Positions 8,574-24,189 are shown, numbered from the stretch's first letter. The stretch: 64,000 nucleotides of DNA from Oscillospiraceae bacterium (GCA_015063545.1 SVTX01000002.1:3672-67671); one strand, 5' to 3'. Translations and numbers: made by a program. The notes: generated by a model from the letters alone, not told the origin.

Positions 8574-9107
8574 ATGGATAGAAGGCAGAAAAAAACAAGA
8601 GACGCTATTTTTGGGGCTTTTGGTGAGCTACTAATGACAAATAAATACGAAAATATAACTGTTCAGGATATTATTGATCGCGCGGATGTGGGCAGATCTA
8701 CATTTTACTCGCATTTTGAAACCAAAGATCATCTTCTGCGGGCTATGTGCGCTGATATATTCGAGCACATTTTTGAAAAAGCAACGTGCAGTTATGAAGG
8801 TTCGCATGATGATCTTGAGGGTGTTCTCTCTCACATTTTGTTTCATTTGAAGGAAAATAAAAAAAGGATATCCGGACTGCTCTGCTCCGATTCGGCAGAT
8901 CTGTTTATGAGATATCTAAGTGAATATTTCAACAAGATTTTCAGCATGTATATATCGCAATTTCATGCAAACGTTCCCAGAGACTATCTTATCAATCACC
9001 TCACAGGCGCATTCGGTCAGACACTAAAGTGGTGGATACATGAAGGCATGGCAACATCACACACCGATATGGCGCGATACTTCATGTCGGTCATAGAAAC
9101 ACATTAA
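8574..9107 (+). CDS. TetR-family regulator, SczA-like
   Basis: DRRQKKTR..I..AF.ELL and ITVQDIIDRADVGRSTFYSH HTH. From memory it resembles pneumococcal SczA, and it is divergent from a CDF gene. Confidence 0.88.
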   Translation: MDRRQKKTRDAIFGAFGELLMTNKYENITVQDIIDRADVGRSTFYSHFETKDHLLRAMCADIFEHIFEKATCSYEGSHDDLEGVLSHILFHLKENKKRISGLLCSDSADLFMRYLSEYFNKIFSMYISQFHANVPRDYLINHLTGAFGQTLKWWIHEGMATSHTDMARYFMSVIETH

Positions 9108-9108
9108 A

Positions 9109-9137
9109 AAACCGCAAGACAGAAAGTCTTGCGGTTT
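9109..9137. terminator. Bidirectional intrinsic terminator
   Basis: aaaccgcaagac-agaaa-gtcttgcggttt. Confidence 0.85.
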
Positions 9138-9143
9138 ACTGTT

Positions 9144-10988
9144 TTAGTTATTCTGCTGTGCGGCTTTTCTTGCCTTCATCATTTCCTTCATGCGAAGCTC
9201 TGTATTGAGTATCTTCTTACGAAGTCTTATAGACTTGGGCGTTACCTCGATAAGCTCGTCGTCGGTAATAAACTCAATAGCCTCCTCAAGACTGAAAATA
9301 GTGGGAGGTGTGAGCAGGAGCTTTTCGTCCGCACCCGCACTTCTTATAGCCGTGAGGTGCTTTTCCTTGCAGGGATTTACGGCAATATCGTCATTCTTGG
9401 GGTTCTCACCGACAATCATTCCCTCGTATACGGGTGTTTGAGGACCTACAAAGAGGTTTCCTCTTTCTTGAGTGTTATACAGTCCGTAACGTGTTGTCAC
9501 GCCTGCCTCAGATGCGATAAGTGCACCCGTAAATCTCATGATAATACCGCCGCGGTAAGGCTGGTAGCCATCAAAGAGTGTGTTAAGCACACCCTCGCCG
9601 TGTGTTGCGGAAAGGAATTCGGAGCGATAGCCGAAAAGACATCTTGACGGAATGAGGTACTCAACTCTCATGCGGCTTCCCATGGGATTCATTTCAATGA
9701 GGTCGCCCTTGCGTTGACCGAGCTTTTCTATTACAGAGCCAACGTATTCGGTGGGCACGTCAAGAGTTACTCTCTCCATAGGCTCGCACTTTACACCGTC
9801 AATTTCCTTTATGATTACCTTGGGGTTTGAGCAAGTAAGCTCATAGCCCTCGCGTCTCATATTCTCGATAAGGATAGAAAGGTGCATCTCTCCTCTGCCC
9901 GATACTATAAACTCGTCGGTTGTGTCACCGTCGCGCACGCGGAGAGAGACGTCCTTGAGAAGCTCGCGGTAAAGTCTCTCACGAAGCTGACGGGAGGTAA
10001 CGAATTTTCCCTCCTTGCCTGCCAAGGGGCTGTCATTTACCGAGAAAGTCATCTCAACCGTAGGCTCGCTGACCTTAACAAATTCAAGAGGCTCAGGATT
10101 TGAGACCGCAGTTATCGTATCACCGATAGAGATGTCTCCTGCTCCCGAAAAGCAAACGATATCACCCATTTTTGCGCTCTCAACGGGCAAGCGTCCAAGT
10201 CCGTCTATCTGATAAAGAGACACGACTTTGGTCTTTATAGGCTTTTCATCGGGCTTGTGGAAGTTACATATTGCTACTTCCTGACCTACTTTAAGAGATC
10301 CGCGCTCGATACGTCCGATACCGATTCTGCCGACGTATTCATTGTAGTCGATAGAGGAAACGAGAAGCTGAAGGTCACCGTCAATATCACCCTCAGGCGC
10401 GGGTATATATTCAAGAATCTTCTCAAACAAAGGAACGAGATTTTCGCCGGGAATATCAGGGTCCTCAGATGCGGTTCCTTCTCTGCCCGAGCAATAAAGC
10501 ATAGGAGAATCAAGCTGATCGTCGGATGCGCCAAGGTCGATAAGAAGCTCAAGTATCTCATCCTCGACCTCACCGAGACGCGCGTCGGGCTTGTCTATCT
10601 TATTGAAGCATACGATAACCTTGTGATTCAGCTCAAGCGCGCGCTTAAGCACGAATCTTGTCTGAGGCATAGGACCTTCTGCCGCATCAACCAGGAGAAT
10701 TACGCCGTTTACCATTTTAAGCACTCGCTCAACCTCACCGCCGAAGTCAGCGTGGCCGGGGGTATCTACGATATTTATTTTTACGTCCTTGTAGTGAACT
10801 GCCGTGTTTTTTGCAAGAATGGTAATACCTCTCTCACGTTCTATGTCTCCCGAATCCATAACGCAGGTAACAGTCTCCTGATTTTCGCGGTATATGCCGC
10901 CCTGCTTCAAGAGTCCGTCAACGAGTGTTGTTTTTCCATGGTCAACGTGCGCTATTATCGCTACGTTTCTTAAATCTTCTCTTACCAT
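9144..10988 (-). CDS. typA: Translational GTPase TypA/BipA
   Basis: [47 protein letters not shown] and GRGEMHL motifs. ATG 10988 follows AGAGG. Confidence 0.97.
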
Positions 10989-11123
10989 ACTTACCTCTGT
11001 ATCTGAAAAATTTCCACTCATTATTATATCACAATTTTTTTCAATATTAAATCACAAAAATAACGATTATTTACATTTTTCGTCACGTGCGTTTGTGCAT
11101 TTTGACATTATATGATTTTGATG

Positions 11124-11152
11124 TTGACCTTGTGAGGCAAATATGGTATAAT
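11124..11152 (+). promoter_or_regulatory. Sigma-A promoter (extended -10) for the HAD gene
   Basis: TTGACC-N17-TATAAT with TG upstream of the -10. Confidence 0.65.
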
Positions 11153-11236
11153 TTAACTGTCAACAAACGACCGTAGATGCACGTAGATCCATCCGCTTCG
11201 GTCGGGATGGCAAAACAAGAAAAGGAACAAACTTAT

Positions 11237-11905
11237 ATGATAAAGGCTTTGATATTTGATCTTGACGGCACAGTTGCCGACACTATATATGCGATAAATG
11301 AGGGTATAAACCTTATGCTTGAAGAACTCGGGTATGCCCCTATTGGTTATGACGATGTTCTCTCATTTGTAAATTTCGGCGCTCGAGGCTACGTTGAAGG
11401 CGCGATCCCCTCCGATGCACCGCACGATGACGAATATATTGACCGCGCGCTTGATATATACAATCAAAAATACGCGCAGACCTACATGCACACAAACAAG
11501 TGCTACGACGGAATTCCCGAGGCACTTGAAAGGCTTGCTCCTCATTTTCGCATGGGAATGCTCTCGAACAAGCAGGACGAGTTTGTCTTAAAGCTTGTAG
11601 ATCAGCTCTTCCGTCCGGGACTTTTCGAGATAGCACATGGCGTCCGCGACGGCATTCCCCCGAAGCCCGACACAGCTGCTCCCTTTGAGTTTGCAAAGTA
11701 CTTCGGACTTCGCCCCGATGAGATAGCCTTTGTGGGTGACAGCGATATCGACGTGCTTACAGCACTTAACGCAGGCATGGTTGCGGTTGACGTATCGTGG
11801 GGATACAGAGATGAGGAGACGCTCAGGAAGGTCGGGGCGCAGTATATAGCGCATACGCCCGATGAGCTTGTAGAGATTCTGATAAAGCTTGGCGAGAAAG
11901 AATAA
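11237..11905 (+). CDS. HAD-superfamily hydrolase (phosphoglycolate-phosphatase-like)
   Basis: FDLDGT motif I, LSNK, KPD and FVGDS..D. ATG 11237 follows AAAGGA. Confidence 0.9.
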   Translation: MIKALIFDLDGTVADTIYAINEGINLMLEELGYAPIGYDDVLSFVNFGARGYVEGAIPSDAPHDDEYIDRALDIYNQKYAQTYMHTNKCYDGIPEALERLAPHFRMGMLSNKQDEFVLKLVDQLFRPGLFEIAHGVRDGIPPKPDTAAPFEFAKYFGLRPDEIAFVGDSDIDVLTALNAGMVAVDVSWGYRDEETLRKVGAQYIAHTPDELVEILIKLGEKE

Positions 11906-12001
11906 AAAGAAAACGGCACGATAGCGTGCACATTAAGCGGTAAAATTGAATTTAGCCATCATTTTTTGAAGTGGTGGCTTTCGCGGAGGAATGACACGCA
12001 A

Positions 12002-12135
12002 GAGCCTTCCTCTGGGAGGAAGGGGGACCACGAAGTGGTGGAAGGAGCCCGCGTAACTTTTAGTTTTAACGGATTTTATTGTCACGCGCTCTCCCTTAGT
12101 CGCCTACGGCGCCAGCTCCCTCCCGGAGGGAGCCT
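12002..12135. repeat. REP/MITE-like element with two degenerate inverted arms
   Basis: Left arm: GCCTTCCTC-tgg-GAGGAAGG plus ACCAC-gaa-GTGGT. Right arm: CGCC-tac-GGCG plus GCTCCCTC-ccg-GAGGGAGC. CGCGT/ACGCG bracket an AT-rich core. Confidence 0.6.
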
Positions 12136-12158
12136 TTCATATGTTCCTGCCGATAAAA

Positions 12159-12189
12159 AACACCACCAAAGAAAATCCTTGGTGGTGTT
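12159..12189. terminator. Intrinsic terminator between the HAD gene and trxA
   Basis: aacaccaccaa ... ttggtggtgtt stem. Confidence 0.75.
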
Positions 12190-12239
12190 CGTGTTTTCTC
12201 CGCTAAAAATGCAGCGCAGATAACGTCCCGTTTTTTTAA

Positions 12240-12548
12240 TTATTTAAGCATCTCAAGCACAGCCTCAAGAGGTCTGTAGCCTACTGCCTTGTCAGCAAGC
12301 TTGCCGTCCTTGAGAAGCACGAGTGTGGGGATGCTGTGGATATCGTATGCATTTGCTATCGCGCCTTCCTCGTCAACGTCCACCTTACAAACTACGACGT
12401 CATCTCTTGTATTCGCAATTTCCTCAACTATTGGAGCCATCATCTTACAGGGACCGCACCACGTAGCGTAAAAGTCGATAAGCACGGGCTTTTGGCTGTT
12501 CAATGCTACCTCGTTGAAATTGTTAACGGTTAAATTTATAATTGCCAT
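12240..12548 (-). CDS. trxA: Thioredoxin
   Basis: DFYATWCGPCK and IHSIPTL. ATG 12548 follows AAAGGA. Confidence 0.95.
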   Translation of the reverse strand: MAIINLTVNNFNEVALNSQKPVLIDFYATWCGPCKMMAPIVEEIANTRDDVVVCKVDVDEEGAIANAYDIHSIPTLVLLKDGKLADKAVGYRPLEAVLEMLK

Positions 12549-12561
12549 AATATTTCCTTTC

Positions 12562-12759
12562 TTATTTTTTCTTGTAATAAAGCATGCAGTGACAGTATCC
12601 CTCAAAATCGGGATCCTTTATCTGCTCCTTGAATTCTTTACACATGCACTTGTATTCTTCAAGTCTTTCGCGTCTGCAGGGGCAGTATCCGCCTGTTCGT
12701 TCAAGACCTTTTCTTATAGTTTCTACTATTTCCCTGTCGGGATTTTCAATAATTTTCAT
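12562..12759 (-). CDS. Ferredoxin:thioredoxin reductase catalytic-subunit-like small Fe-S protein
   Basis: 65 aa with GYCPC, CMC and GYCHC.LY motifs, matching the CPC/CPC/CHC pattern of FTR-c. Confidence 0.8.
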   Translation of the reverse strand: MKIIENPDREIVETIRKGLERTGGYCPCRRERLEEYKCMCKEFKEQIKDPDFEGYCHCMLYYKKK

Positions 12760-12792
12760 TGTTCTCTCCTTGAGATATAATTTAGATGCATT

Positions 12793-13908
12793 TTACGGCT
12801 TGCATATACCGCAAGTGTTTGCGTCCGGATATTCTTCCATAAGCTCTTCCAAAGTTCCGTAGTAGTATATTCGGTTTTCTTCCTTCAACTTTGATGCGCT
12901 GCTGCATGTGGTCTTGTGGACCTTGAAGTTACCTTTGTTGATTATATACGTGACGTCTGCAAGACTAAACTCAAACTCACCCGTTGAGTAATCAATATCA
13001 TAATGTGATTGAACGTTGTGGATATAAACATTAAAGCAAATTCCTTCACCCTCATCCTCAACAGAATAAGCCTCAATCAAGACACCGCTGCAAAGAAGAT
13101 TATTTCCTTCAAATACAGGAGTTACTCGGTACATAACGTGATTGCCCGTCTCTTTGATATAGTCGGCTATCATGTTTTCAAATTCGAGCATAGCCCTGTT
13201 AAGTTCTTTTGTTCCGGTCACAAGATTCTGCTTGTTTGCATTCTCTCCCGCAAGTTGCCATCCTATAAGGTGACAGCGGTCATAAATCGTTCCGGACTGC
13301 CAACCGGTAGGAGTAATATGTCCTATATTTCCCCTGTCATCGGTGGGCATAAGATCTTTTCCGAGGCATGCCACAGTTATGCCGCATCTGCCGAGATCAT
13401 CAAGAGGAGAGTAATACTCATAAGACTCGGAGACTATCTGATTCTGAGTAAAGAACGGAACTCCGTCATTTACATCGACGTATGCAGAGCCGTCATGCTG
13501 CGGGGCTGTAAAGCTCGGCATAGTGAGCGCAGGGTTCTCTATGGGGATAATATCGGGAGTTTCGCTGGGCTTTTCCGAGGGTGCTTCCGTAGATTTATCT
13601 GTAGGGGCTTCTGTGGGAGTGTCTGTAGGAGATTCTGTGGGAGTGTCGGTAGGCACTTCTGTGGGAAGTTCCGTGGGATCTTCCGTGGGTTTTGATGTAG
13701 GCGCCTCTGTGGGCTTTTCTGTCGGTTTTTCCGTAGGGACTTTCGTTGGTATATCGGTAGGCGTTTCTGTAACGTGATCCGTTGAAGTTTCCGTTTCGGA
13801 TGGCGTGGCTTTAGACGCGTCACCTTCATCTGTGCATGAAATTGCGGATAATGCAATAATAAGCGCAAATATGAGGGCTAATATACGCAGCATGTTTTTA
13901 TTTTTCAT
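12793..13908 (-). CDS. Lipoprotein DNA/RNA non-specific endonuclease (DNA-entry-nuclease type)
   Basis: Lipobox AISC, PTE-repeat linker, LDDLGRC, TPTGWQ, DRCHLIG..LAG and YRVTP.F motifs, plus a C-terminal H...C...C.IC.P Ada-like metal-binding tail. Confidence 0.85.
   Translation of the reverse strand: MKNKNMLRILALIFALIIALSAISCTDEGDASKATPSETETSTDHVTETPTDIPTKVPTEKPTEKPTEAPTSKPTEDPTELPTEVPTDTPTESPTDTPTEAPTDKSTEAPSEKPSETPDIIPIENPALTMPSFTAPQHDGSAYVDVNDGVPFFTQNQIVSESYEYYSPLDDLGRCGITVACLGKDLMPTDDRGNIGHITPTGWQSGTIYDRCHLIGWQLAGENANKQNLVTGTKELNRAMLEFENMIADYIKETGNHVMYRVTPVFEGNNLLCSGVLIEAYSVEDEGEGICFNVYIHNVQSHYDIDYSTGEFEFSLADVTYIINKGNFKVHKTTCSSASKLKEENRIYYYGTLEELMEEYPDANTCGICKP
13560..13790 (-). repeat. 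Low-complexity 12-bp (PTE/PTD) repeats encoding a linker
   Basis: TETPTDIPTKVPTEKPTEKPTEAPTSKPTEDPTELPTEVPTDTPTE... Confidence 0.85.
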
Positions 13909-13924
13909 GATTTATCCCCTTTAA

Positions 13925-14857
13925 TTATTTCAAAAAGCCGTTAATGATCTCTTCTTCCGCTTGTTTTTCATCAAGACCGAGTGTCATGAGCTTTATAAGC
14001 TGTTCTCCTGCGATCTTTCCTATCGCCGCCTCGTGAATAAGCGACGCTTCAATGTGGTTTGCTTCTATTTCGGGAACAGCCTTAACGCTTGCGCTGTCCA
14101 TTATAATGGCATCGCACTCGGTATGTCCGTTGCATCTGGCATTTCCCTTTATGTTGGATATGAAGAGCTGCTTGGAGTTGTCCTTTGCGACAGAACGGGA
14201 TACAACATGCGTTCCGCATCCTTCTCCGTTGAGTTCGACCTCAAATTCCGTACGGGCATACTGCTCGCCGTGTGTCATGAGCTTTTCATATACAACAAGA
14301 GTTGAATCCTTGTCAAGCACGGCAACAGTTTTTCTATCGGTGGAATCCACTCCCTTAATCTGCGCCGTTTCCATCTCCATGTATGCGCCTTCCGCAAGAT
14401 ATATCTGCGTTGTGGGGTTCATTACGTTTCGTCCGTTACCGTCTCCCTCGCCGTAGTGCTTTTCCACGTACTTTATCTTGGCATTTTTTGCAACGTAAAA
14501 CGTGTGTATTCCGCTATGCTCGCTCATTTCCGTGCCGCAGTTGTGTATTCCGCAACCCGCAACAATGACAACGTCTGCATCCTCGCCGATATAAAAATCG
14601 TTAAATACAGTCTCGGTTATGCCGGTCTCGGAAAGAATTACGGGAATGTGCATGCTTTCATTTTTTGTGCCTGCCGCAATATGAATATCTATTCCGGGCT
14701 TTTCCTTTTTCTTTTCGATCGTGATATTCGCGCTGGACTGCTTTCCAACCAACTCACCGTTTACGCGGAGTGAATACGCGCCGTCGGGCACCTTGTGAAG
14801 CCCTGCTATGTTTTCAAGAAGATCTTTTTCCATCTTGCTGAGTGTTTTCTGTGCCAT
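13925..14857 (-). CDS. sufB: SufB/SufD-family Fe-S scaffold protein (short, SMS-type)
   Basis: GHTECDAII, HEAAIGKI and QLIKLMTLGL.E..AEE.II.GF C-terminal motifs. Confidence 0.85.
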   Translation of the reverse strand: MAQKTLSKMEKDLLENIAGLHKVPDGAYSLRVNGELVGKQSSANITIEKKKEKPGIDIHIAAGTKNESMHIPVILSETGITETVFNDFYIGEDADVVIVAGCGIHNCGTEMSEHSGIHTFYVAKNAKIKYVEKHYGEGDGNGRNVMNPTTQIYLAEGAYMEMETAQIKGVDSTDRKTVAVLDKDSTLVVYEKLMTHGEQYARTEFEVELNGEGCGTHVVSRSVAKDNSKQLFISNIKGNARCNGHTECDAIIMDSASVKAVPEIEANHIEASLIHEAAIGKIAGEQLIKLMTLGLDEKQAEEEIINGFLK

Positions 14858-15588
14858 CAGTCCTCACCTCCCGCTGTATATCTGCATCCTGCGCTTGCAC
14901 TGAGAAGTTCGGGAAGTATCTCTTCTTTCGTGCCGTAAGCAGCTACTTTGCCGTTTGCAATTACCACTATCTTATCAGCTATGTCAAGTATTCTTTCCTG
15001 GTGCGAGATTATAAGTATATTTCCCTGTGTTTTTTCATGCATCTTCTCAAACACTTTGATAAGATTATTAAAGCTCCACAGGTCAATACCCGCCTCAGGC
15101 TCGTCAAACACAGAGAACTTTGTACCGCGCGCGTTTATCATAGCTATCTCTATTCTCTTCAGCTCGCCGCCCGAAAGAGATGCGTTTACCTCACGGTTAA
15201 TGTATTCCTTAGCGCAAAGCCCCACCTCAGAGAGATAAGAACATGCCTCGGATATGGATATCTTCTTGCCCGCCGCAAGAGATATAAGATCTTTAACGGT
15301 AATTCCTTTAAATCTCACAGGTTGCTGGAACGCAAAGGAAATGCCCGCGCGAGAGCGCTCGGTTATGTTCATATTCGTTATATCTACGCCGTCAAGTATG
15401 ATCTGACCGCAGTCGGGAGTAATTATTCCCGCAATAAGCTTTGCAAGCGTTGACTTTCCGCTTCCGTTAGGGCCTGTCACGGCAACAAAACGCTCGTTTA
15501 TGGTCAAGCTTACATCGTCAAGAATACGGTTTTGCTTTCCTGTTTCGGGATCTGTTACCGTATATGACAAATTTTTAATTTCAAGCAT
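14857..15588 (-). CDS. sufC: SufC-like ABC ATPase
   Basis: GPNGSGKST, AFQQP, LSGGELKRIE, FDEPEAGIDL and ISHQ motifs. Overlaps sufB. Confidence 0.85.
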   Translation of the reverse strand: MLEIKNLSYTVTDPETGKQNRILDDVSLTINERFVAVTGPNGSGKSTLAKLIAGIITPDCGQIILDGVDITNMNITERSRAGISFAFQQPVRFKGITVKDLISLAAGKKISISEACSYLSEVGLCAKEYINREVNASLSGGELKRIEIAMINARGTKFSVFDEPEAGIDLWSFNNLIKVFEKMHEKTQGNILIISHQERILDIADKIVVIANGKVAAYGTKEEILPELLSASAGCRYTAGGED

Positions 15589-15623
15589 TTTATATAAACC
15601 TTTCTAAAATAAACTCTCTTATT

Positions 15624-15652
15624 ATTTTATCATAAAATGTAAGTTTATTCAA
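15624..15652 (-). promoter_or_regulatory. Probable sigma-A promoter for sufC-sufB-nuclease-ftr-trxA
   Basis: Minus strand TTGAAT-N17-TAAAAT. Confidence 0.5.
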
Positions 15653-15712
15653 TAGATATTTGAAAAAAATAGAGGCATTGGAGAAGAATTTGTTCTCCCG
15701 TGCCCCTATTTG

Positions 15713-16627
15713 TTATATTTTGGAATTATCAATATATCTGCAAGCGGCAAGTGCGGCCGTAGCGCCGTCTCCGCACGCCGTTGCAATTTGTCTTATGTTC
15801 TTTGTTCTGCAGTCACCTGCCACAAAAAGTCCGTCTGTTCTGGTAATGCAATTTTCATCCGAAACAACATATCCGCGCTCAGAAAGATCAACGAGATTTG
15901 CATATTGTTCGTTTTCGGGAACCTGACCGATAGCCACGAAAATTCCGTCAACGTCAAGTCTTTGCTTTTCTCCTGTGGCAACCTTCTTGATTATTATGCC
16001 GCCAAACTCATCCTCTGCATAAATGCTGTCAACGACTGTACCGGTTATGAATTCAACGTTATTCTTTTTTGCGAGTGAAGAAACAAGTCTTTCTTCACCT
16101 GTCATATAATCAAGATTCTGTACCACGTAGACCTTAGAGCATCCGTCTGACAGCATCATAGCTTCAACCAACGCTGAGTTTCCACCGCCAATTACGGCAA
16201 CTTCCTTGCCGTTGTAGAATGCGCCGTCACAGACTGCGCAAAAGGAAATTCCGTTGCCTATGAATTCTTCCTCCCTATCAAGCCCAAGGTGTCTGTGCTT
16301 GGAGCCGGTAGCAAGGATGACCGTGTGCGAAAGATACTGTCCGTCATCACAGGAAACGTAGAAAATTCCGTTCTCCTGATGGATACCCGTAACCTCTGCC
16401 ATCTCTATTTCCGCGCCCATGGAAAGCGCTTGCTCTACCATTCTTTCGGCAAGCTCATTACCGCTTATCTGTGAAAACGCGGGAAAATTCTCTATTTTGG
16501 GAGAAAAGGTCATCTGTCCGCCAAAGGTTGCTTTTTCAATAACAAGAACACTTTTATCTGCTCTGCGGGCATAGACCGCCGCGGTAAGTCCCGCGGGGCC
16601 TGCGCCTACGATTATTACGTCATACAT
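15713..16627 (-). CDS. trxB: Thioredoxin reductase
   Basis: GAGPAGLTAA, GISFCAVCDG, GGGNSA, FVAIGQ.P and FVAGDC motifs. Confidence 0.92.
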   Translation of the reverse strand: MYDVIIVGAGPAGLTAAVYARRADKSVLVIEKATFGGQMTFSPKIENFPAFSQISGNELAERMVEQALSMGAEIEMAEVTGIHQENGIFYVSCDDGQYLSHTVILATGSKHRHLGLDREEEFIGNGISFCAVCDGAFYNGKEVAVIGGGNSALVEAMMLSDGCSKVYVVQNLDYMTGEERLVSSLAKKNNVEFITGTVVDSIYAEDEFGGIIIKKVATGEKQRLDVDGIFVAIGQVPENEQYANLVDLSERGYVVSDENCITRTDGLFVAGDCRTKNIRQIATACGDGATAALAACRYIDNSKI

Positions 16628-16652
16628 TCAGATACCCTCCGATTTCAGAGTA

Positions 16653-19061
16653 TCAGTTGTTCTGAGAATCAATGAATTTCCTGATGTTGGAAAGATTTAC
16701 TGCCTTTTCGACCTCAACACCGTTTACGGTAACAACAAGCGTGGGAGCCTGCTTTATTCCATATTTAGCTACGAGAACTTCATTTTCTTCTGCATAAACC
16801 TTTTCGTATGCAATTCCCGCCTTGTCAAGGAATACGCCTGCCATCTTACAGTTGGGGCACGTCTTTGTAGCAAAGAGATAGATCTTTGTTCCTTCCTCGG
16901 AATCACACGCGCACGCTTCCTCAACAATAGGCATTGCAATAGTTCTTACTCCGCCCGAGCCGATGTTTATTTCGGGATGAAGCTCTGTGGAACGTTCAAT
17001 GTTATATGTGCGTCTTTCCTTGAATTCCTGAGACTTACCGTCATTCCAAGCCTGAACGGGTCTGTAGTAGCCTGTTATTCTGCTGTAAACCTCAGTGGTC
17101 TTTCCGCAGTGAGGACACTTGTATACCTCACCGGAAAGATAACCGTGCTCGGTACAAATGCTGTATGTAGGCGACAGCGTGTAATAAGGCAGTCTGTAGT
17201 TTTCAGCGATCTTACGGATAAGAGTTGCAGCAGCCTTCCAGTTGGGAAGCTTTTCACCGAGGAATGCATGGAATACCGTTCCTGATGTGTAGAGTGTCTG
17301 CATCTCATCCTGAATATCAAGAGCTGCGAAGATATCCTCGGTAAAGCTTACGGGAAGATGAGAAGAGTTCGTATAGTAGGGGCTGTTACCCTTCTCGGTT
17401 GCCGTAATTATATCGGGATACTTCTTAAGGTCATGCTTTGCGAATCTGAAAGAAGTGGATTCAGCAGGTGTTGCCTCAAGGTTGTAAAGGTCGCCGTAAG
17501 CCTCCTGATAGTCGGAAAGTCTCTCTCTCATGTGGTTGAGAACATTCTTGGAGAATTCCTGAGTTTCCTTCTGAGTCATGTCAGCGCGGAGCCACTTTGC
17601 GTTGAGACCTGCCTCGTTCATACCAACAAGACCGATGGTCGAGAAGTGATTATTGAACGTGCCGAGATATCTCTTTGTATAGGGATAAAGTCCCTCGTTA
17701 AGAAGCTTTGTGATAACCGTTCTCTTCATCTTGAGAGAACGCGCGGAGATGTCCATGAGCTTATCAAGTCTCTTGTAGAACTCTTCTTCTGTCTCAGAGA
17801 GATATGCGATTCTGGGCATGTTGATGGTAACTACGCCGACAGAACCCGTGGATTCTCCCGAACCGAAGTAACCGCCAGACTTCTTACGAAGCTCACGGAG
17901 GTCAAGACGGAGACGGCAGCACATAGAACGAACGTCAGAGGGCTCCATATCCGAATTGATGTAGTTGGAGAAATAAGGAGTGCCGTACTTTGCGGTCATT
18001 TCAAAGAGAAGCTTGTTATTCTCTGTCTCAGACCAGTCAAAGTCACGTGTAATGGAATACGTAGGAATAGGATACTGGAATCCACGGCCGTTTGCGTCAC
18101 CCTCGATCATGATCTCGATGAACGCCTTGTTGACCATATCCATTTCAGCCTTACAGTCCTTATACTTGAAGTCCATTTCCTTACCGCCAACTATACAGTT
18201 GAACTCTGCAAGGTCATTCGGAACTGTCCAGTCAAGAGTGATATTCGTAAAGGGAGACTGTGTTCCCCAACGAGAAGGTGTATTTACACCGTAGATAAAG
18301 GACTGAATGCACTGTTTAACTTCTTTATAAGAAAGGTTATCTACCTTAACAAAGGGAGCAAGATATGTATCAAATGAGGAGAATGCCTGAGCGCCTGCCC
18401 ACTCGTTCTGCATGATGCCGAGGAAGTTTACCATCTGGTTGCAGAGTGTGGAAAGGTGTGCCGCGGGAGCAGATGTGATCTTACCTACAACACCGCCGAG
18501 ACCTTCCTGAATGAGCTGTTTGAGGGACCAACCTGCACAGTAGCCCGTGAGCATGGAAAGGTCGTGAATATGTATGTCCGCATTTCTGTGAGCGTTTGCT
18601 ATCTCATCGTCATATACTTCGGAGAGCCAGTAGTTAGCTGTGATCGCTCCGGAGTTTGAAAGAATAAGTCCTCCGACAGAGTAAGTCACAGTAGAGTTTT
18701 CCTTTACTCTCCAGTCAAGCTCCTTGAGGTATCCGTTAACTACCTCTTTATAGTCAAGAGCTGTGCTCTTAAGATTTCTTATCTTCTCTCTCTGACGGCG
18801 ATAAAGAATATATGCCTTTGCAACATCAGCATAGCCCGCCTGAACAAGAACGGATTCTACACTGTCCTGAATATCCTCAACGGTTATAAGTGAATTCTTT
18901 ATCTTGGGCTCAAAGTCCGCGGTTACCTTGAGTGCCAAGAAATCGATAATTTCTTGATTAAACTGCTTTTCCTGCGCCTCAAATGCCATCTTGATAGCAT
19001 CGGCGATCTTACCAATGGTAAAGTCAACGACCTTACCGTCTCTCTTTTGTACCTGATACAT
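16653..19061 (-). CDS. nrdD: Class III anaerobic ribonucleotide reductase with ATP cone and C-terminal glutaredoxin/NrdH-like domain
   Basis: ATP cone VQKRDG, SMCCRL, EATPAES, CTEH..CPHC Zn site, YSRITGYYRPV glycyl-radical motif, then CPNC and IKQAPTL. ATG 19061 follows AAGGAG. Confidence 0.95.
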   Translation of the reverse strand: MYQVQKRDGKVVDFTIGKIADAIKMAFEAQEKQFNQEIIDFLALKVTADFEPKIKNSLITVEDIQDSVESVLVQAGYADVAKAYILYRRQREKIRNLKSTALDYKEVVNGYLKELDWRVKENSTVTYSVGGLILSNSGAITANYWLSEVYDDEIANAHRNADIHIHDLSMLTGYCAGWSLKQLIQEGLGGVVGKITSAPAAHLSTLCNQMVNFLGIMQNEWAGAQAFSSFDTYLAPFVKVDNLSYKEVKQCIQSFIYGVNTPSRWGTQSPFTNITLDWTVPNDLAEFNCIVGGKEMDFKYKDCKAEMDMVNKAFIEIMIEGDANGRGFQYPIPTYSITRDFDWSETENNKLLFEMTAKYGTPYFSNYINSDMEPSDVRSMCCRLRLDLRELRKKSGGYFGSGESTGSVGVVTINMPRIAYLSETEEEFYKRLDKLMDISARSLKMKRTVITKLLNEGLYPYTKRYLGTFNNHFSTIGLVGMNEAGLNAKWLRADMTQKETQEFSKNVLNHMRERLSDYQEAYGDLYNLEATPAESTSFRFAKHDLKKYPDIITATEKGNSPYYTNSSHLPVSFTEDIFAALDIQDEMQTLYTSGTVFHAFLGEKLPNWKAAATLIRKIAENYRLPYYTLSPTYSICTEHGYLSGEVYKCPHCGKTTEVYSRITGYYRPVQAWNDGKSQEFKERRTYNIERSTELHPEINIGSGGVRTIAMPIVEEACACDSEEGTKIYLFATKTCPNCKMAGVFLDKAGIAYEKVYAEENEVLVAKYGIKQAPTLVVTVNGVEVEKAVNLSNIRKFIDSQNN

Positions 19062-19147
19062 AGGTGCTCTCCTTTTCTCTGTTGATTTTATAAAATTTTT
19101 ACTTTCAAAATGTGACAAATTTCGCCGCAAAGTGTCTATAGCGGCAG

Positions 19148-19184
19148 AAATACGGCGCATAGTTACCCCATAGCGCCGTATTTT
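19148..19184 (-). other. Stem-loop at the nrdG terminator / nrdD transcript start
   Basis: aaatacggcgc ... gcgccgtattt. Confidence 0.6.
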
Positions 19185-19185
19185 G

Positions 19186-19214
19186 ATTATACTATATATT
19201 GTGTTGCTTGTCAA
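19186..19214 (-). promoter_or_regulatory. Sigma-A promoter of nrdD
   Basis: Minus strand TTGACA(19214-09)-N17-TATAAT(19191-86). Confidence 0.8.
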
Positions 19215-19237
19215 TACCCAAACACAAGATATTGTGT
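19189..19237. promoter_or_regulatory. Tandem NrdR boxes
   Basis: ATACTATATATTGTGT (19189-204) and ACACAAGATATTGTGT (19222-37), 33 bp apart, match the acaCwAtATaTwGtgt consensus. Confidence 0.8.
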
Positions 19238-19268
19238 TTTTGGTAAAAAATAGGCATATTCTACAGTT

Positions 19269-19973
19269 TTATATACCTCTTAATTGTGCATTTGGAACGA
19301 AAGACTTTAACGTGCTAAGAAATTCTCTCATTTCTTCATCCGAAAATGCATCCATACCCCTTCCGATTATGTCGGAGGAGCTGACAAATTTTTGAAGAAA
19401 ATATTTTTCATTACCCGCAAGCCACTCTCCGATGCGAACAAAATCATCCGCCTCATGCAAGGGATCTACGACCGTAGTACGAAATTCAAAATCAATTGCG
19501 CCGGACATCAGAAACGCCGCGCTTTCTTCTATATTTGATATATCGTAACCGTCATCAAGACCGCACGTCAAAGTATATTTTTCACGACTGTTTTTGATAT
19601 CCATAGCTACATAGTCTATAAGCCCCTCATCAACAAGATGCTTAAGAATTTCCGGGCGACTTCCGTTTGTATCAAGCTTTACTGCAAATCCAAGTTTTTT
19701 TACGCTGCGTATAAAGTCTTCAAGTCCCGGCATCAGAGTCGGCTCACCGCCGCTGATACACACACCCTCAAGTATTCCCTGCCTTGTTTTTAAGTATCCT
19801 AAAATTTCTTCCGTCGAATAATACTCTGCCTCATTTGGAGCAAGCACCAAGGAAGCATTATGGCAAAATGGGCATCTGAAATTGCATCCTACCGTAAAAA
19901 GCGTACATGCCACTTTCCCGGGAAAATCCAATAAGGTAAGCTTCTGGATTCCTCCTATAACAAATGTTTTCAT
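19269..19973 (-). CDS. nrdG: Anaerobic RNR-activating radical SAM protein
   Basis: LLDFPGKVACTLFT.GCNFRCPFCHN, ISGGEPTL, VKLDTNGS and EFRTTV motifs. Adjacent to nrdD. Confidence 0.88.
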   Translation of the reverse strand: MKTFVIGGIQKLTLLDFPGKVACTLFTVGCNFRCPFCHNASLVLAPNEAEYYSTEEILGYLKTRQGILEGVCISGGEPTLMPGLEDFIRSVKKLGFAVKLDTNGSRPEILKHLVDEGLIDYVAMDIKNSREKYTLTCGLDDGYDISNIEESAAFLMSGAIDFEFRTTVVDPLHEADDFVRIGEWLAGNEKYFLQKFVSSSDIIGRGMDAFSDEEMREFLSTLKSFVPNAQLRGI

Positions 19974-19985
19974 TTTATCTCCACG

Positions 19986-20579
19986 TCAAATATAATTTCT
20001 TTGTACGGCAATAACTTTTCCCAAAATAAGCAGTTCATCAAAAAACATGGGCTGCATAGAAGGGTTTTCCGGCTGAAGTCTGTAATGACCGTTTTCTCTG
20101 AAAAATCTTTTTACGGTAGCTTCGTCCTCAATGAGAGCCACGACTATTTCTCCGCTTTCGGCATAGCAAGTCTTTTCTGCGATTATTATATCTCCGTCAA
20201 GAATGCCCGCGCCGATCATGCTTTCTCCCTTGACTCGCAACGCAAATAGATTCTCGGAAGCGATATTTCCCGCATATCCTACATAACCTTCTCTATTTTC
20301 TTCTGCAAGTATAGGCTCGCCTGCGGTAATAACCCCCAAAAGAGGAACTGCACAAATCTTAGGCATTTCTCCTACAATTTTGACAGCTCGGCTTTTTCCG
20401 TCTTCTTTGGTTATATATCCAAGAAGATCCAATCTGTTGAGATACATGTGAACTGTAGAGGTGCTCTTATATCCAAGGTCGCGGCAAATATCTCTGACAG
20501 AGGGTGCATATCCGTTTTTCTGCATTGATCTTACTATGTAATCGTATATTTTCTGTTCTTTTGGTTTAAGCTTTTCCAT
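19986..20579 (-). CDS. lexA: SOS repressor LexA
   Basis: PSVRDIC..LG..STSTVH HTH, VPLLG.ITAG.P cleavage site, V.GESM and ATVK catalytic Ser/Lys. Confidence 0.96.
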   Translation of the reverse strand: MEKLKPKEQKIYDYIVRSMQKNGYAPSVRDICRDLGYKSTSTVHMYLNRLDLLGYITKEDGKSRAVKIVGEMPKICAVPLLGVITAGEPILAEENREGYVGYAGNIASENLFALRVKGESMIGAGILDGDIIIAEKTCYAESGEIVVALIEDEATVKRFFRENGHYRLQPENPSMQPMFFDELLILGKVIAVQRNYI

Positions 20580-20605
20580 GTAGATACCCCTATTTTGTAA
20601 TTTAT

Positions 20606-20619
20606 AGAACTATTGTACC
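20606..20619. promoter_or_regulatory. Probable SOS (Cheo-like) box over the lexA -10
   Basis: AGAAC-TATT-GTACC is one mismatch from GAAC-N4-GTTC and overlaps the minus-strand TG-G-TACAAT. Confidence 0.55.
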
Positions 20620-20855
20620 ATATTTTTTTAATTTTGTCTTTGGTTATTCGACAATTTTTTTGTAAATTTTATTTTACGAAGTTAAAAAAATCCTATTTTT
20701 TTACTTCAATATGTAAAATATTAACATTCTGCAACTTTTAAAAAATTTACCTTGCAAAATATGAAAAAATATAGTACAATATATAATAGCGAAGAATTTA
20801 GAAAAATCGCATGTTTTACGTTAAAAATTTCTTATCATAAAAGGAGAAAAAGACT

Positions 20856-22649
20856 ATGACACCCACAAACAACAAGTTTGTTCTTGATTGGATCAAGGAA
20901 ATGGCTGACATGACCTGCCCCGATAAGATCGTATGGATCGACGGTACAGACGAGCAGGCAGAGGCTCTCCGTGCAGAGGCTTGCTCCACGGGCGAGATGA
21001 TAAAGCTCAACGAAGAGCTTCTTCCCAACTGCTACCTTCACAGAACCGCAGTTAACGACGTTGCTCGTGTTGAGGGCAGAACCTTTATCTGCACGTCCAA
21101 GAAGGAAGACGCCGGAAACATCAACAACTGGATGGATCCCCAGGAGTGCTACGCAAAGCTTTCAAAGCTCTATGCAGGCTCTATGAAAGGCAGAACGATG
21201 TACGTTATTCCCTATTCTATGAGTATCGTTGGCTCACCCTTTGCAAAATACGGAATTGAGCTTACAGACTCCATCTACGTCGTTCTTAACATGCTTATCA
21301 TGACTCGCGTTGGAAACAACGTGCTTGAAGCCCTCGGCGATAGCGGCGACTTTATCAAGGGCCTCCACGCAAGAGCAGATATCGATGAAGAAAACCGTTA
21401 TATATGTCACTTCCCCGAAGACAATACCATTTGGTCTGTTAACTCCGGATACGGCGGAAACGTTCTTCTCGGTAAGAAGTGCTTTGCTCTCCGTATAGCT
21501 TCCTACCTCGGACGCAAGGAAGGATGGATGGCTGAACACATGCTTATCCTCGGTGTTGAATATCCCAACGGCGAGACAAAGTACGTTTGCGCGGCATTCC
21601 CCTCTGCTTGCGGTAAGACCAACCTCGCAATGCTTATTCCCCCCGAGTATTACTCAAAGCAGGGCTACAAGGTATGGTGCGTAGGTGACGATATTGCATG
21701 GCTCCGCGTAGGCGAGGACGGCAGACTTTGGGCTGTTAACCCCGAAAACGGATTCTTCGGCGTTGCTCCCGGTACAAACGAGAAGTCTAACCCCAATGCT
21801 CTCCACACATGTCTTAAGGACACTATCTTTACAAACGTAGTTCACAACACAGAAAATAATACAGTATGGTGGGAAGGTCTCGACAACAATCCTCCCACAC
21901 CCGGTAATGCTATTGACTGGAAGGGCAATCCTTGGGACTGCACCAAGTACAATAAGAAGGATAAGTCCACATGCGGTGCTCATCCCAACTCCCGTTTCAC
22001 TGCTCTTGCAAAGAACTGTCCATGCATCTCCTCAGAGTTCAACAATCCCGCAGGCGTTCCTATCTCCGCTATCGTATTTGGTGGACGTAGAGCAAAGACA
22101 GCTCCCCTTGTATATCAGTCAACATCCTGGCAGAACGGCGCATTCGTCGGCTCTATCATGGCTTCCGAAACAACTGCAGCTGCAGCAGGCGCTGTCGGTG
22201 TAGTTCGTCGTGATCCCATGGCTATGAGACCTTTCGTTGGCTACGATATGGGTGACTACTGGGCACACTGGCTCAAGATGGGTACACTTATTCCCCACGC
22301 TCCCAAGATCTTCCACGTTAACTGGTTCCGTACCGACGACGAAGGCAACTTCATCTGGCCCGGTTTCGGTGATAACATGAGAGTTCTTATGTGGATACTC
22401 GCTCGTTGCGAAGGCAAGGTTGATGCAGAGATCACTCCCATCGGTTACATTCCTAAGGCTGAGGACATTTGCATTGAAGGTCTTGAGGACGTAACTCTTG
22501 ACACCATCAAAGAGCTTCTCACAGTCGATAAAGCATCCTGGCTTGAGGACGTTGAGAACATCAAGGCATTCTACGCGCAGGTTGGCGATCGCGTTCCCCA
22601 GACTATGTACGATGAGCTTGCAGCACTTGAGGCAAGACTTAAGGCGTAA
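20856..22649 (+). CDS. pckG: Phosphoenolpyruvate carboxykinase (GTP)
   Basis: SGYGGN.LLGKKCFALR, AEHML, FPSACGKTNLAM, GDDIAW, NPENGFFGVAPG, HPNSRF and HVNWFR motifs. Confidence 0.96.
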   Translation: MTPTNNKFVLDWIKEMADMTCPDKIVWIDGTDEQAEALRAEACSTGEMIKLNEELLPNCYLHRTAVNDVARVEGRTFICTSKKEDAGNINNWMDPQECYAKLSKLYAGSMKGRTMYVIPYSMSIVGSPFAKYGIELTDSIYVVLNMLIMTRVGNNVLEALGDSGDFIKGLHARADIDEENRYICHFPEDNTIWSVNSGYGGNVLLGKKCFALRIASYLGRKEGWMAEHMLILGVEYPNGETKYVCAAFPSACGKTNLAMLIPPEYYSKQGYKVWCVGDDIAWLRVGEDGRLWAVNPENGFFGVAPGTNEKSNPNALHTCLKDTIFTNVVHNTENNTVWWEGLDNNPPTPGNAIDWKGNPWDCTKYNKKDKSTCGAHPNSRFTALAKNCPCISSEFNNPAGVPISAIVFGGRRAKTAPLVYQSTSWQNGAFVGSIMASETTAAAAGAVGVVRRDPMAMRPFVGYDMGDYWAHWLKMGTLIPHAPKIFHVNWFRTDDEGNFIWPGFGDNMRVLMWILARCEGKVDAEITPIGYIPKAEDICIEGLEDVTLDTIKELLTVDKASWLEDVENIKAFYAQVGDRVPQTMYDELAALEARLKA

Positions 22650-22670
22650 TTTGATTTGATAGAATAGAAT

Positions 22671-22714
22671 ACGGGGGAAGGAAAACTTCTTAAAAGAGTT
22701 TTTCCTTCCCCCGT
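22671..22714. terminator. Strong hairpin after pckG (part of a probable dispersed repeat)
   Basis: acgggggaaggaaaa ... ttttccttcccccgt, a 15-bp stem. Confidence 0.75.
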
Positions 22715-22750
22715 ACACCTATCCTTTCAAGAACTTTCACAAATATGAGA

Positions 22751-22782
22751 ATAACCCCACTGAATTCTTGCAGTGGGGTTAT
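22751..22782. terminator. Second hairpin, probable tadA terminator
   Basis: ataaccccactg ... cagtggggttat. Confidence 0.75.
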
Positions 22783-22787
22783 ATATT

Positions 22788-23231
22788 TTATCTTTTATTT
22801 TCAAAAAAATCTGAAAGAATATCCCTGCACTCCTCCGCCATTACACCCGAAACTATATCGGGTTTATGGTTCAAGGGGTAGCTGTTAAGGTTTATCACGC
22901 TTCCGCACGCACCTGCCTTTGCATCCTTTGCGCCAAAAACAATTCGTTTTATTCTCGAATTTATGATCGCTCCCATACACATAGGGCAAGGTTCAAGCGT
23001 TACGTAAATCTCACAGTCTTCAAGTCGCCACGTATTAAGCTTATCACATGCTTGTCTTATTGCAATAATTTCCGCATGTCCTGTCGCGTCGTGACTTTCT
23101 TCCCTGTTGTTTCTGCCTTCGGCAATTATCTCGCCGTTTTTTACTATTACCGCGCCCACGGGAACCTCCCCCGCGTCAGAAGCAGTATGCGCCAGGCAAA
23201 GCGCGCTTTTCATATATTTTTCGTAACTCAT
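22788..23231 (-). CDS. tadA: tRNA adenosine(34) deaminase
   Basis: GEVPVGAVIV, HAEI.AI, TLEPCPMC.GAI and LSDFF...R motifs. Confidence 0.92.
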   Translation of the reverse strand: MSYEKYMKSALCLAHTASDAGEVPVGAVIVKNGEIIAEGRNNREESHDATGHAEIIAIRQACDKLNTWRLEDCEIYVTLEPCPMCMGAIINSRIKRIVFGAKDAKAGACGSVINLNSYPLNHKPDIVSGVMAEECRDILSDFFENKR

Positions 23232-23235
23232 AATC

Positions 23236-24189
23236 TTATAACAGGAACAACATCACTGCGGATGCTCCGCTTACTGCAACAAAAACTATCATGGTAGGCG
23301 TAAAGAAACCTTTTACGGCATAGCCCTTTGACAGCGGCTTATCCGTTTGATACATCCATTCTCCGTCATTAAGATGCTTCATACCATACTTTGCAAAATA
23401 ATATATAGTTGCCGCAAGTCCGATGAGCAATATAGCAAGCTCAATCGCGGCAATAATGAAAGTCGCACGAGCTTCGGACTGTGTGTATTGAATTGCGCTG
23501 AATATCACGTTAGAAAGATTATTTACGAAGTGTAATATTATACATCCCCAGATAGATCCCGATTCCAATGCCATATATGCCAAGAACATTCCAAGTATAA
23601 ACGTATAGAATATCTGCGCAGGGTTCTGATGCATCAACGCAAACAACAATGCAGATATAATCATAGCTTTAAATCTTCCAAAGCGTGTAAGGCGGTCAAG
23701 TATGAGGCCTCTGAAAAGCAATTCCTCACAAAACGCCGGAACTATTGCTATTTTGATGATATCAAGTATAAAATGGTATATTTGATAACCGTTGGGATAC
23801 TCCTCTACCATAAGTCCCGACAAGTCCACTCCTGCCAATGACATCAAAATAGAATTGATGTATGCCGCAACAAAATTCAATGCCAGACCGGAAAAAATAA
23901 GCAACGGAAGCTTGCTTGAAAACTTGAGCCTACATGGCATCTGGCGAAATGAATACTTTTTGTCAAACTTTTTATACAGAAGCATGGGAACAAAAAACAT
24001 AGCAAAATATACGACACAGTAAATTATCTGGTAGGATATATCGTATGCTTTTTCGCTTTGAAACCAAGATTTTGCGGTCTCAAGAAAAACCAATATAAGT
24101 GAGAATGCCGTAGATGCGCCCAAAAAGAACAGCATCACGGTGCCTATCCTCATATTTTGTTTTTTATATTCGGCGTTGTAATTCTCCAT
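23236..24189 (-). CDS. CPBP-family intramembrane metalloprotease
   Basis: EELLFRG, FALMH and HFVNN motifs in a multi-TM protein. Confidence 0.88.
   Translation of the reverse strand: MENYNAEYKKQNMRIGTVMLFFLGASTAFSLILVFLETAKSWFQSEKAYDISYQIIYCVVYFAMFFVPMLLYKKFDKKYSFRQMPCRLKFSSKLPLLIFSGLALNFVAAYINSILMSLAGVDLSGLMVEEYPNGYQIYHFILDIIKIAIVPAFCEELLFRGLILDRLTRFGRFKAMIISALLFALMHQNPAQIFYTFILGMFLAYMALESGSIWGCIILHFVNNLSNVIFSAIQYTQSEARATFIIAAIELAILLIGLAATIYYFAKYGMKHLNDGEWMYQTDKPLSKGYAVKGFFTPTMIVFVAVSGASAVMLFLL

Follow-up and report, generated by a model that had tools for sequence, protein, structure and literature searches.

The reductant of the commonest double-Cys class III ribonucleotide reductases (RNRs), those with an MCCR finger loop, is unsettled (PMC9669993). 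For the NrdD2 enzymes of Neisseria bacilliformis and Thermotoga maritima, according to Wei et al. 2014 as relayed by PMC4493059 and PMC9669993, the expected reductant is a redoxin, there a free TrxA, that is recycled by a flavoprotein disulfide reductase. According to Wei et al. 2015, Methanosarcina barkeri has a gene for a [4Fe-4S] protein of the ferredoxin:thioredoxin reductase (FTR) catalytic type, the ferredoxin:disulfide reductase (FDR), near its class III RNR, NrdD3, with NrdH as partner of FDR and ferredoxin as the proposed donor. In Facklamia ignava a redoxin is fused to an RNR subunit as its own reductant (Grx-ATP-cone-NrdB); that fusion is of class I, N-terminal on the radical subunit and recycled by glutathione (PMC6187632). 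A grx::nrdD fusion was mentioned only once in the searchable literature, as a single entry, Lachnospiraceae bacterium TWA4, in the RefSeq survey of PMC6187632. Here we analysed a stretch of 64,000 nt from Oscillospiraceae bacterium (GCA_015063545.1 SVTX01000002.1:3672-67671; genome 92% complete), called the window below, which carries a class III RNR gene, nrdD, with a C-terminal redoxin domain, next to the activase gene nrdG and a gene for a thioredoxin reductase (TrxR)-like flavoprotein. We consider it probable that nrdG and nrdD::redoxin-trxR make up a real functional module, within a block of three adjacent units of which the third is separate.

We assessed the conservation of this arrangement with the TrxR-like protein as query, taking one genome per species and mapping the neighbours by tblastn. 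This gave 80 loci at 46-92% identity, 26 at genus level (≥70% identity) and 54 others, all from gut metagenome-assembled genomes of Eubacteriales/Oscillospiraceae, Faecousia, Acutalibacteraceae and some Lachnospiraceae, and of lineages labelled Bacilli, Anaeroplasma and Onthousia. Among the 79 loci informative for the nrdD-trxR distance, the TrxR-like gene starts <400 nt (median 48) 3' of nrdD::redoxin in 74; in 3 the distance is 1.1-4.3 kb, and 2 lack the gene. The nrdG gene is 5' of nrdD wherever it was matched (48/48 loci, 18 genus-level and 30 others), and lexA, encoding the SOS repressor, stands directly 5' of nrdG in 18 of the 26 genus-level loci. An independent search of 40 relatives placed nrdD::redoxin and trxR side by side in at least six families. 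SufC/SufBD genes follow trxR in 25 of the 26 genus-level loci, in contrast to none of the 54 others. The FDR-like gene and trxA come after them in 15/26 genus-level loci (13 yes, 7 clear no), compared to 0/54, and the nuclease gene is present in 1/26 and 0/54. Outside the genus, the SufBD and FDR-like genes of the 40 relatives lie on other contigs. The unit that is conserved consists of nrdG, nrdD::redoxin and trxR; only in this genus do the Fe-S, nuclease, FDR-like and trxA genes lie next to it.

A sequence-only reading of this stretch had proposed that the eight genes from nrdG to trxA make up a single, self-contained island for anaerobic dNTP supply, with a TrxB and a ferredoxin-FTR-TrxA electron route, dedicated Fe-S assembly and possibly nucleotide scavenging. 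An ORF listing with Pfam and NCBIfam profile scans confirmed that the eight genes are contiguous on one strand with the outer coordinates it gave, as part of a minus-strand run of nine consecutive head-to-tail genes (12240-20579, lexA through trxA). The list and its coordinates were right as far as they went; lexA, 12 nt upstream of nrdG, was left out, and the proteins labelled trxB and sufB both score under the NCBIfam equivalog cut-offs. Besides contiguity, the island is favoured by the nrdD-trxR-sufC-sufBD order in 25/26 genus-level loci, by the FDR and NrdH route that feeds the class III RNR of M. barkeri, and by the reduction of N. bacilliformis NrdD by TrxA (PMC9669993). However, the gene order that it expected to be conserved holds for nrdG, nrdD::redoxin and trxR and ends there, since no locus beyond the genus has SufBD, FDR-like, TrxA or nuclease genes near the module and the nuclease occurs in a single genus-level locus. 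Of 41 related genomes, 18 lack the FDR-like gene; 7 of these belong to the same genus and retain the RNR module, and genomes whose NrdD is of another type do carry the gene. The nrdD-trxR pair is flanked by a promoter with NrdR boxes on one side and a terminator on the other, the SufBD protein is the only such scaffold of the genome, and the TrxB lacks the NADPH motif. Given these data, we regard a single eight-gene island as very unlikely. Instead, the genes, though related in theme and aligned in a long run on one strand, split into separately regulated, lineage-specific modules.

The gap between nrdG and nrdD holds a perfect promoter, TTGACA-17-TATAAT (19214-19186), and two NrdR-box palindromes (19222-19237 and 19189-19204) that are the sole matches with at most one mismatch in the window. 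NrdR is encoded in the same genome on another contig (C11), and NrdR-like boxes were found 5' of nrdD in 36 of 52 related loci. Folding showed a strong hairpin followed by U7 at the end of trxR (Table 1), and direct folding of the relatives gave strong hairpins, unrelated in sequence, at the same post-trxR position. The trxR|sufC junction tolerates insertions of 1.9-2.4 kb in two loci (L009 and L022). Because a promoter and NrdR boxes precede nrdD, a terminator follows trxR, a promoter-like site precedes sufC and the junction between them accepts insertions, the block is best read as three adjacent units with predicted boundaries, lexA-nrdG, nrdD-trxR and sufC-sufBD-nuclease-FDR-trxA; the same signals argue against the eight genes being one unit. 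The closest relative has a 536-aa ORF without a Pfam match between trxR and sufC (L001:1279-2889, the same as L009).

Between the stop codon of lexA and the start of nrdG lie 12 nt with a GGAG ribosome-binding site (19973-19988), which makes it probable that nrdG shares a transcript with the SOS repressor gene. No exact LexA box (GAACN4GTTC) is present in the 64-kb window; a LexA-box-like sequence, GAACTATTGTAC (20607-20618), overlaps the -10 element of lexA, one-mismatch matches being at chance level in the window. The nrdD 5' leader (19062-19185, minus strand) folds strongly (dG -35 kcal/mol, z -4.1). Relatives preserve its first hairpin, which stands directly behind the -10, through compensatory changes, and a U-rich run comes next; this hairpin, which has no Rfam match, may be an attenuator. 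An Rfam scan of 9000-24000 returned neither a riboswitch nor a leader.

Translation of nrdD truly starts at 19061 (MYQVQKRDG) and not at the TTG further upstream (19214); the protein comprises an ATP-cone (18786-19055), the barrel, the glycyl radical G664 in RITGYY, a linker and the redoxin domain. It is identified as class III by its glycyl-radical motif together with the Zn site (CxxH and CPHC) at its C-terminus. We mapped its residues by HMMER alignment to T. maritima NrdD (4coi), with the numbering checked on S328-C-C-R331. C175 aligns with T. maritima C125, M380-C381-C382-R383 with S328-C-C-R331, which gives a double-Cys finger loop of the MCCR variant, and E529 (YNLEATPAE) with E495 (NIEQVPAE), the proton-donor column in Burnim et al. 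(PMC9669993). The formate-type NrdD of P. copri (8p23) has G-C at the loop and Leu at the Glu site (alignment; PMC9669993, PMC4493059). Since the third Cys in the finger loop and E529 are both present, the sequence of NrdD fits the definition of NrdD2, the thiol-dependent class III RNR. The sequence-only reading had likewise called NrdD thiol-type; the double-Cys loop and the active-site Glu bear this out, although its SMCCR differs from the SCCR of N. bacilliformis and Thermotoga, with which it had been grouped. No class I or II RNR was found in the genome, and the class III nrdD is therefore the organism's sole RNR and its only dNTP route, as for many gut anaerobes.

The same reading had a redoxin in place of formate as reductant, and the NrdD2 residues agree with this, but the Met retained in the MCCR loop is regarded as compatible with formate chemistry (PMC9669993) and leaves room for it on motif grounds. 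A true pyruvate formate-lyase (TIGR01255, 1170 bits) and, adjoining it, an activase are also encoded in the genome, and formate is therefore available. NrdD might thus depend on formate or accept either reductant, with the redoxin domain and the TrxR-like protein acting in repair or regulation, for example on adventitious disulfides after oxygen. We consider this quite unlikely: NrdD has both residues by which NrdD2 is defined and which formate-type enzymes lack, the third Cys and E529, and the conservation of the fusion (72/74) and of the reductase (74/79) suits stoichiometric catalysis better than occasional repair.

Past G664, the NrdD tail runs through a linker into a domain of ~80 residues with a Trx/Grx fold, TCPNCK and a QAPTL cis-Pro loop. 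The reading frame of this domain continues that of NrdD in 72 of 74 related loci, and its CPxC and cis-Pro loop are invariant. Of the 73 tails counted, the window's among them, 64 have CPNC at the active site and 9 have CPKC. Both the Glutaredoxin and the Thioredoxin model of Pfam matched all 20 domains sampled. At least 1854 protein clusters of ~800 aa bear the redoxin extension, and they are named only 'ribonucleoside triphosphate reductase'. A CxC in the linker (ACACD) was considered as a conserved feature and rejected, as it is not kept among the tails compared.

The TrxR-like protein has the FAD motif GAGPAG, CAVC and the pyrophosphate motif GGGNSA, whereas the HRRxxxR motif for the 2'-phosphate of NADPH is replaced by VQNLDYMTGE. 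HRR is missing in 75 of 76 clade members, which have V[VI]QNLxFLTGE or a close variant instead and keep GGGN[ST]A, and the protein fails the equivalog test of TIGR01292 (Table 1). This pattern suggests that NADPH is probably not the donor, and it speaks against the NADPH-TrxB route of the sequence-only reading. By sequence and by fold the nearest solved structure is 7jyp, the Thermosipho africanus TrxR, with the motif VQNLPYLT; PDB sequence scores were 247 bits to 7jyp, 219-247 for the top NTR-like structures and 132.7 for 6gna, a ferredoxin-dependent flavin TrxR (FFTR). An identity as FFTR finds no support in this distance from 6gna or in the retained GGGxxA; of the two NAD(P)H motifs that FFTRs have lost, only that for the 2'-phosphate is lost here. 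Because GGGxxA is retained, NADH is our first guess for the donor and reduced ferredoxin or flavodoxin our second. The T. maritima TR reportedly prefers NADH (PMC5627308, which cites Yang and Ma 2010). The 54 non-genus loci gave no ferredoxin or flavodoxin gene by the module, nor any other conserved neighbour beyond nrdG, nrdD and trxR. One NrdD-linked TrxR (L072:10001-10894), 54% identical and at the same position after nrdD::redoxin, reads IHRRDSFRGE and offers a natural donor-switch comparison.

Alternatively, the TrxR-like protein could be a general thioredoxin reductase that also serves TrxA and stands by nrdD since RNR is its main client, in which case the FDR-like protein would have another substrate. 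TrxA is the only canonical thioredoxin found by tblastn in its own genome, there is no other simple TrxR, and a second TrxR is also lacking in the five closest genomes. The sole other TrxR homologue is a 550-aa AhpF-homologue (TIGR03143; C5:2562-3467), so that the genome appears to be without any HRRxxxR-type NADPH thioredoxin reductase. However, many relatives carry an extra TrxR, 40-44% identical, and the FDR-like gene and trxA are always adjacent and are gained and lost together, which points to the FDR-like protein as the reductase of TrxA. We judge the general role unlikely. The AhpF-homologue carries a C-terminal PDO-like double Trx fold.

With gene content, motifs, folds, synteny and the promoter, NrdR-box and terminator sequences as observed, we infer the electron-transfer steps and donors of the nrdG, nrdD::redoxin and trxR module as follows. 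NrdG would install the glycyl radical at G664. NrdD would then reduce NTPs by NrdD2 chemistry, leaving a disulfide of C175 with C381 or C382, with E529 as the proton donor. The tethered CPNC redoxin domain would re-reduce this disulfide and would itself be re-reduced by the TrxR-like flavoprotein, through its FAD and CAVC, from a donor that is probably not NADPH. NrdR would set the expression of nrdD-trxR at the strong promoter. The redoxin partners that had been expected for NrdD would thus be its own domain and a dedicated TrxR-like gene, which form a trio with nrdG in 74/79 loci. These data suggest that a three-gene, NrdR-controlled module of the thiol type, with a tethered redoxin and a putative non-NADPH TrxR, is widespread and barely mentioned in the literature. 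More tentatively, and at somewhat less than even chance, the trio might be a distinct and widespread electron-supply chain for class III RNR that is run by NADH or ferredoxin rather than by NADPH or formate. This would explain the reduction of the majority, MCCR-type enzymes, and in this subclade, which appears to be without an NADPH-type TrxR, thiols would have only one other route of reduction, a minimal ferredoxin:thioredoxin reductase of 65 aa. A fused redoxin with a dedicated reductase that lacks the NADPH motif offers a directly testable answer to the MCCR reductant, in a compact three-protein system.

Table 1. Predicted genes, domains and transcription signals of the block, with the profile or folding evidence for each.
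Feature	Position	Strand	Evidence
lexA (SOS repressor)	19986..20579	-	TIGR00498 188 bits
nrdG, class III RNR radical-SAM activase, CNFRCPFC cluster motif	19269..19973	-	TIGR02495 (NrdG2) 218.5 bits vs cut-off 131
nrdD promoter TTGACA-17-TATAAT (12/12) with two overlapping NrdR-box palindromes	19186..19237	-	consensus match
nrdD, class III RNR with C-terminal redoxin domain	16653..19061	-	NF006126 1132.7 bits; PF13597 635 bits
NrdD C-terminal Trx/Grx-fold redoxin domain, TCPNCK, QAPTL cis-Pro loop	16653..16916	-	Pfam Glutaredoxin and Thioredoxin
TrxR-like flavoprotein disulfide reductase, CAVC	15713..16627	-	TIGR01292 324.9 bits, under cut-off 343.45
Intrinsic terminator after trxR, hairpin and U7	15660..15711	-	dG -23.3 kcal/mol, z -7.7
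Promoter-like site TTGAAT-17-TG-TAAAAT 5' of sufC	15624..15652	-	consensus match only
SufC-like ABC ATPase	14857..15588	-	TIGR01978 131.4 bits, under cut-off 212.8
Short SufB/D-like scaffold protein, 310 aa	13925..14857	-	PF01458 SUFBD_core 85 bits
Secreted or lipid-anchored non-specific nuclease, PT-repeat stalk	12793..13908	-	PF13930 83.9 bits; signal peptide with Cys
65-aa minimal FTR-catalytic/FDR-like protein	12562..12759	-	Pfam FeThRed_B (PF02943) 22.3 bits vs cut-off 22
trxA, WCGPC	12240..12548	-	TIGR01068 117.9 bits
Intrinsic terminator after trxA	12158..12190	-	15-bp stem then U run; folded 106-nt stretch dG -34.2 kcal/mol, z -5.0

The third unit would join a general Fe-S scaffold to a mobile two-gene thioredoxin system. 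Its SufC-like gene always comes as a pair with the SufBD-like gene, and the latter is the only SUFBD_core gene of the genome (single match). The pair differs from a canonical SUF system: the scores are all below the equivalog cut-offs (SufC 131 vs 213, SufB 66 vs 346, SufD 68 vs 222, SmsB 57 vs 650), and Aminotran_5 genes lie on other contigs. The genome yielded no convincing IscU candidate. Since the pair holds the genome's only SUFBD_core scaffold, it is on sequence grounds the putative general minimal Fe-S scaffold of the cell, with a housekeeping role, and not the dedicated helper of NrdG, which runs counter to the Fe-S assembly for NrdG and FTR that had been proposed. The pair is also a candidate for a minimal Fe-S system of two genes in gut Clostridia. 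The nuclease gene is a sporadic insertion in this unit; most relatives have ~20 nt, and no nuclease, between sufBD and the FDR-like gene. In the nuclease, a long stalk is built of PT repeats (TEKPTE and similar), the C-terminal tail beyond the PF13930 domain is Cys-rich (HKTTC...CGIC), and a 54%-identical copy at the same position was found in L014 only.

The Pfam FeThRed_B match of the 65-aa protein is marginal (Table 1), and PDB sequence searches with it, single and profile, returned no match. Across 27 aligned homologues, C26-P-C28, C38-M-C40, C56-H-C58 and His57 are invariant. Its AlphaFold2 model has a pLDDT of 95.6, and the top Foldseek matches were 7pwe and 4tpu (TMq 0.72-0.73, prob 1.00, rmsd 2.3-2.6 Å). 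The predicted structure is that of an FDR/FTR-catalytic core, in agreement with the FTR-like label given earlier. The family comprises at least 1838 clusters. In every context, L001-L008 and 15/15 loci, trxA is directly 3' of the FDR-like gene, and these contexts include sites beside nadABC with a flavodiiron gene and beside a prophage. The two genes travel as a pair, gained and lost together and independent of the RNR module. Because the genome has one TrxA and no HRR-type TrxR, the FDR-like protein is by its sequence a natural candidate reductase of TrxA, and this 65-aa putative [4Fe-4S] protein would probably reduce TrxA with ferredoxin. Elsewhere in the window, a long palindrome (22650-22735) matched models of plant miRNA precursors weakly on either strand; the most likely reading is a bidirectional terminator that lies behind the gene with its end at 22649.

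Several points weigh against the reading of nrdG and nrdD::redoxin-trxR as a thiol-driven module separate from the third unit. NrdD retains the finger-loop Met of formate-type enzymes, and a true pyruvate formate-lyase with its activase is encoded, as described above. The boundaries of the units are predictions, and terminators can leak. With one TrxA and a sole simple TrxR that is linked to NrdD, cross-talk between the second and third units is possible. The near-invariant nrdD-trxR-sufC-sufBD order in the genus could reflect weak selection and not ancestry alone. As for the donor, the TrxR of L072 has a canonical HRRD motif, so that the donor may vary, and the NADH preference of the T. maritima TR is comparable only if that enzyme bears the QNL motif.

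In comparison with the described systems, NrdD shares with the N. bacilliformis and T. maritima NrdD2 enzymes, as PMC4493059 and PMC9669993 relay them from Wei et al. 2014, the beta-A Cys, the adjacent finger-loop Cys pair and the Glu, and here too the reductant is expected to be a redoxin that a flavoprotein disulfide reductase recycles. In contrast to those enzymes, the loop here is MCCR and theirs SCCR, the redoxin is fused to the NrdD C-terminus, and the putative reductase is encoded next door without the NADPH 2'-phosphate motif. The locus resembles the F. ignava fusion (PMC6187632) in carrying the reductant on an RNR subunit, but here the RNR is of class III, the fusion is C-terminal past the glycyl-radical domain and a TrxR-like gene is paired with it. 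Like M. barkeri, it has a gene for an FTR-catalytic-type protein near a class III RNR. However, M. barkeri NrdD3 has QCCR and no Glu, and its FDR partners NrdH (Wei et al. 2015), whereas NrdD here has MCCR with the Glu and falls outside the NrdD3 type, and the FDR-like gene is paired with trxA, in a separate predicted unit, and dispensable across relatives. With FFTR (Clostridium; 6gna), DvTRi, T. maritima TR and T. africanus TrxR (7jyp), the TrxR-like protein has in common the TrxR fold, a CxxC and the lack of HRRxxxR; 7jyp is the closest of these atypical TrxRs, with VQNLxYLT common to both, and unlike FFTR and TRi the protein here keeps the GGGxxA pyrophosphate motif and is positioned with NrdD. 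The 65-aa protein shares its predicted core fold, CPC/CxC/CHC and CHCML with 4tpu (M. acetivorans FDR), 7pwe (a Desulfotalea Grx-FDR fusion) and the plant and cyanobacterial FTR catalytic subunit. It differs from these relatives in being only 65 aa long, with no variable subunit or extra domains, and in a shifted middle motif, CMC, which places its Cys motifs 9 and 15 residues apart; the spacing in FTR is 16 and 8 residues. The 65-aa FDR-like protein and TrxA are perhaps the smallest ferredoxin-linked thioredoxin system.

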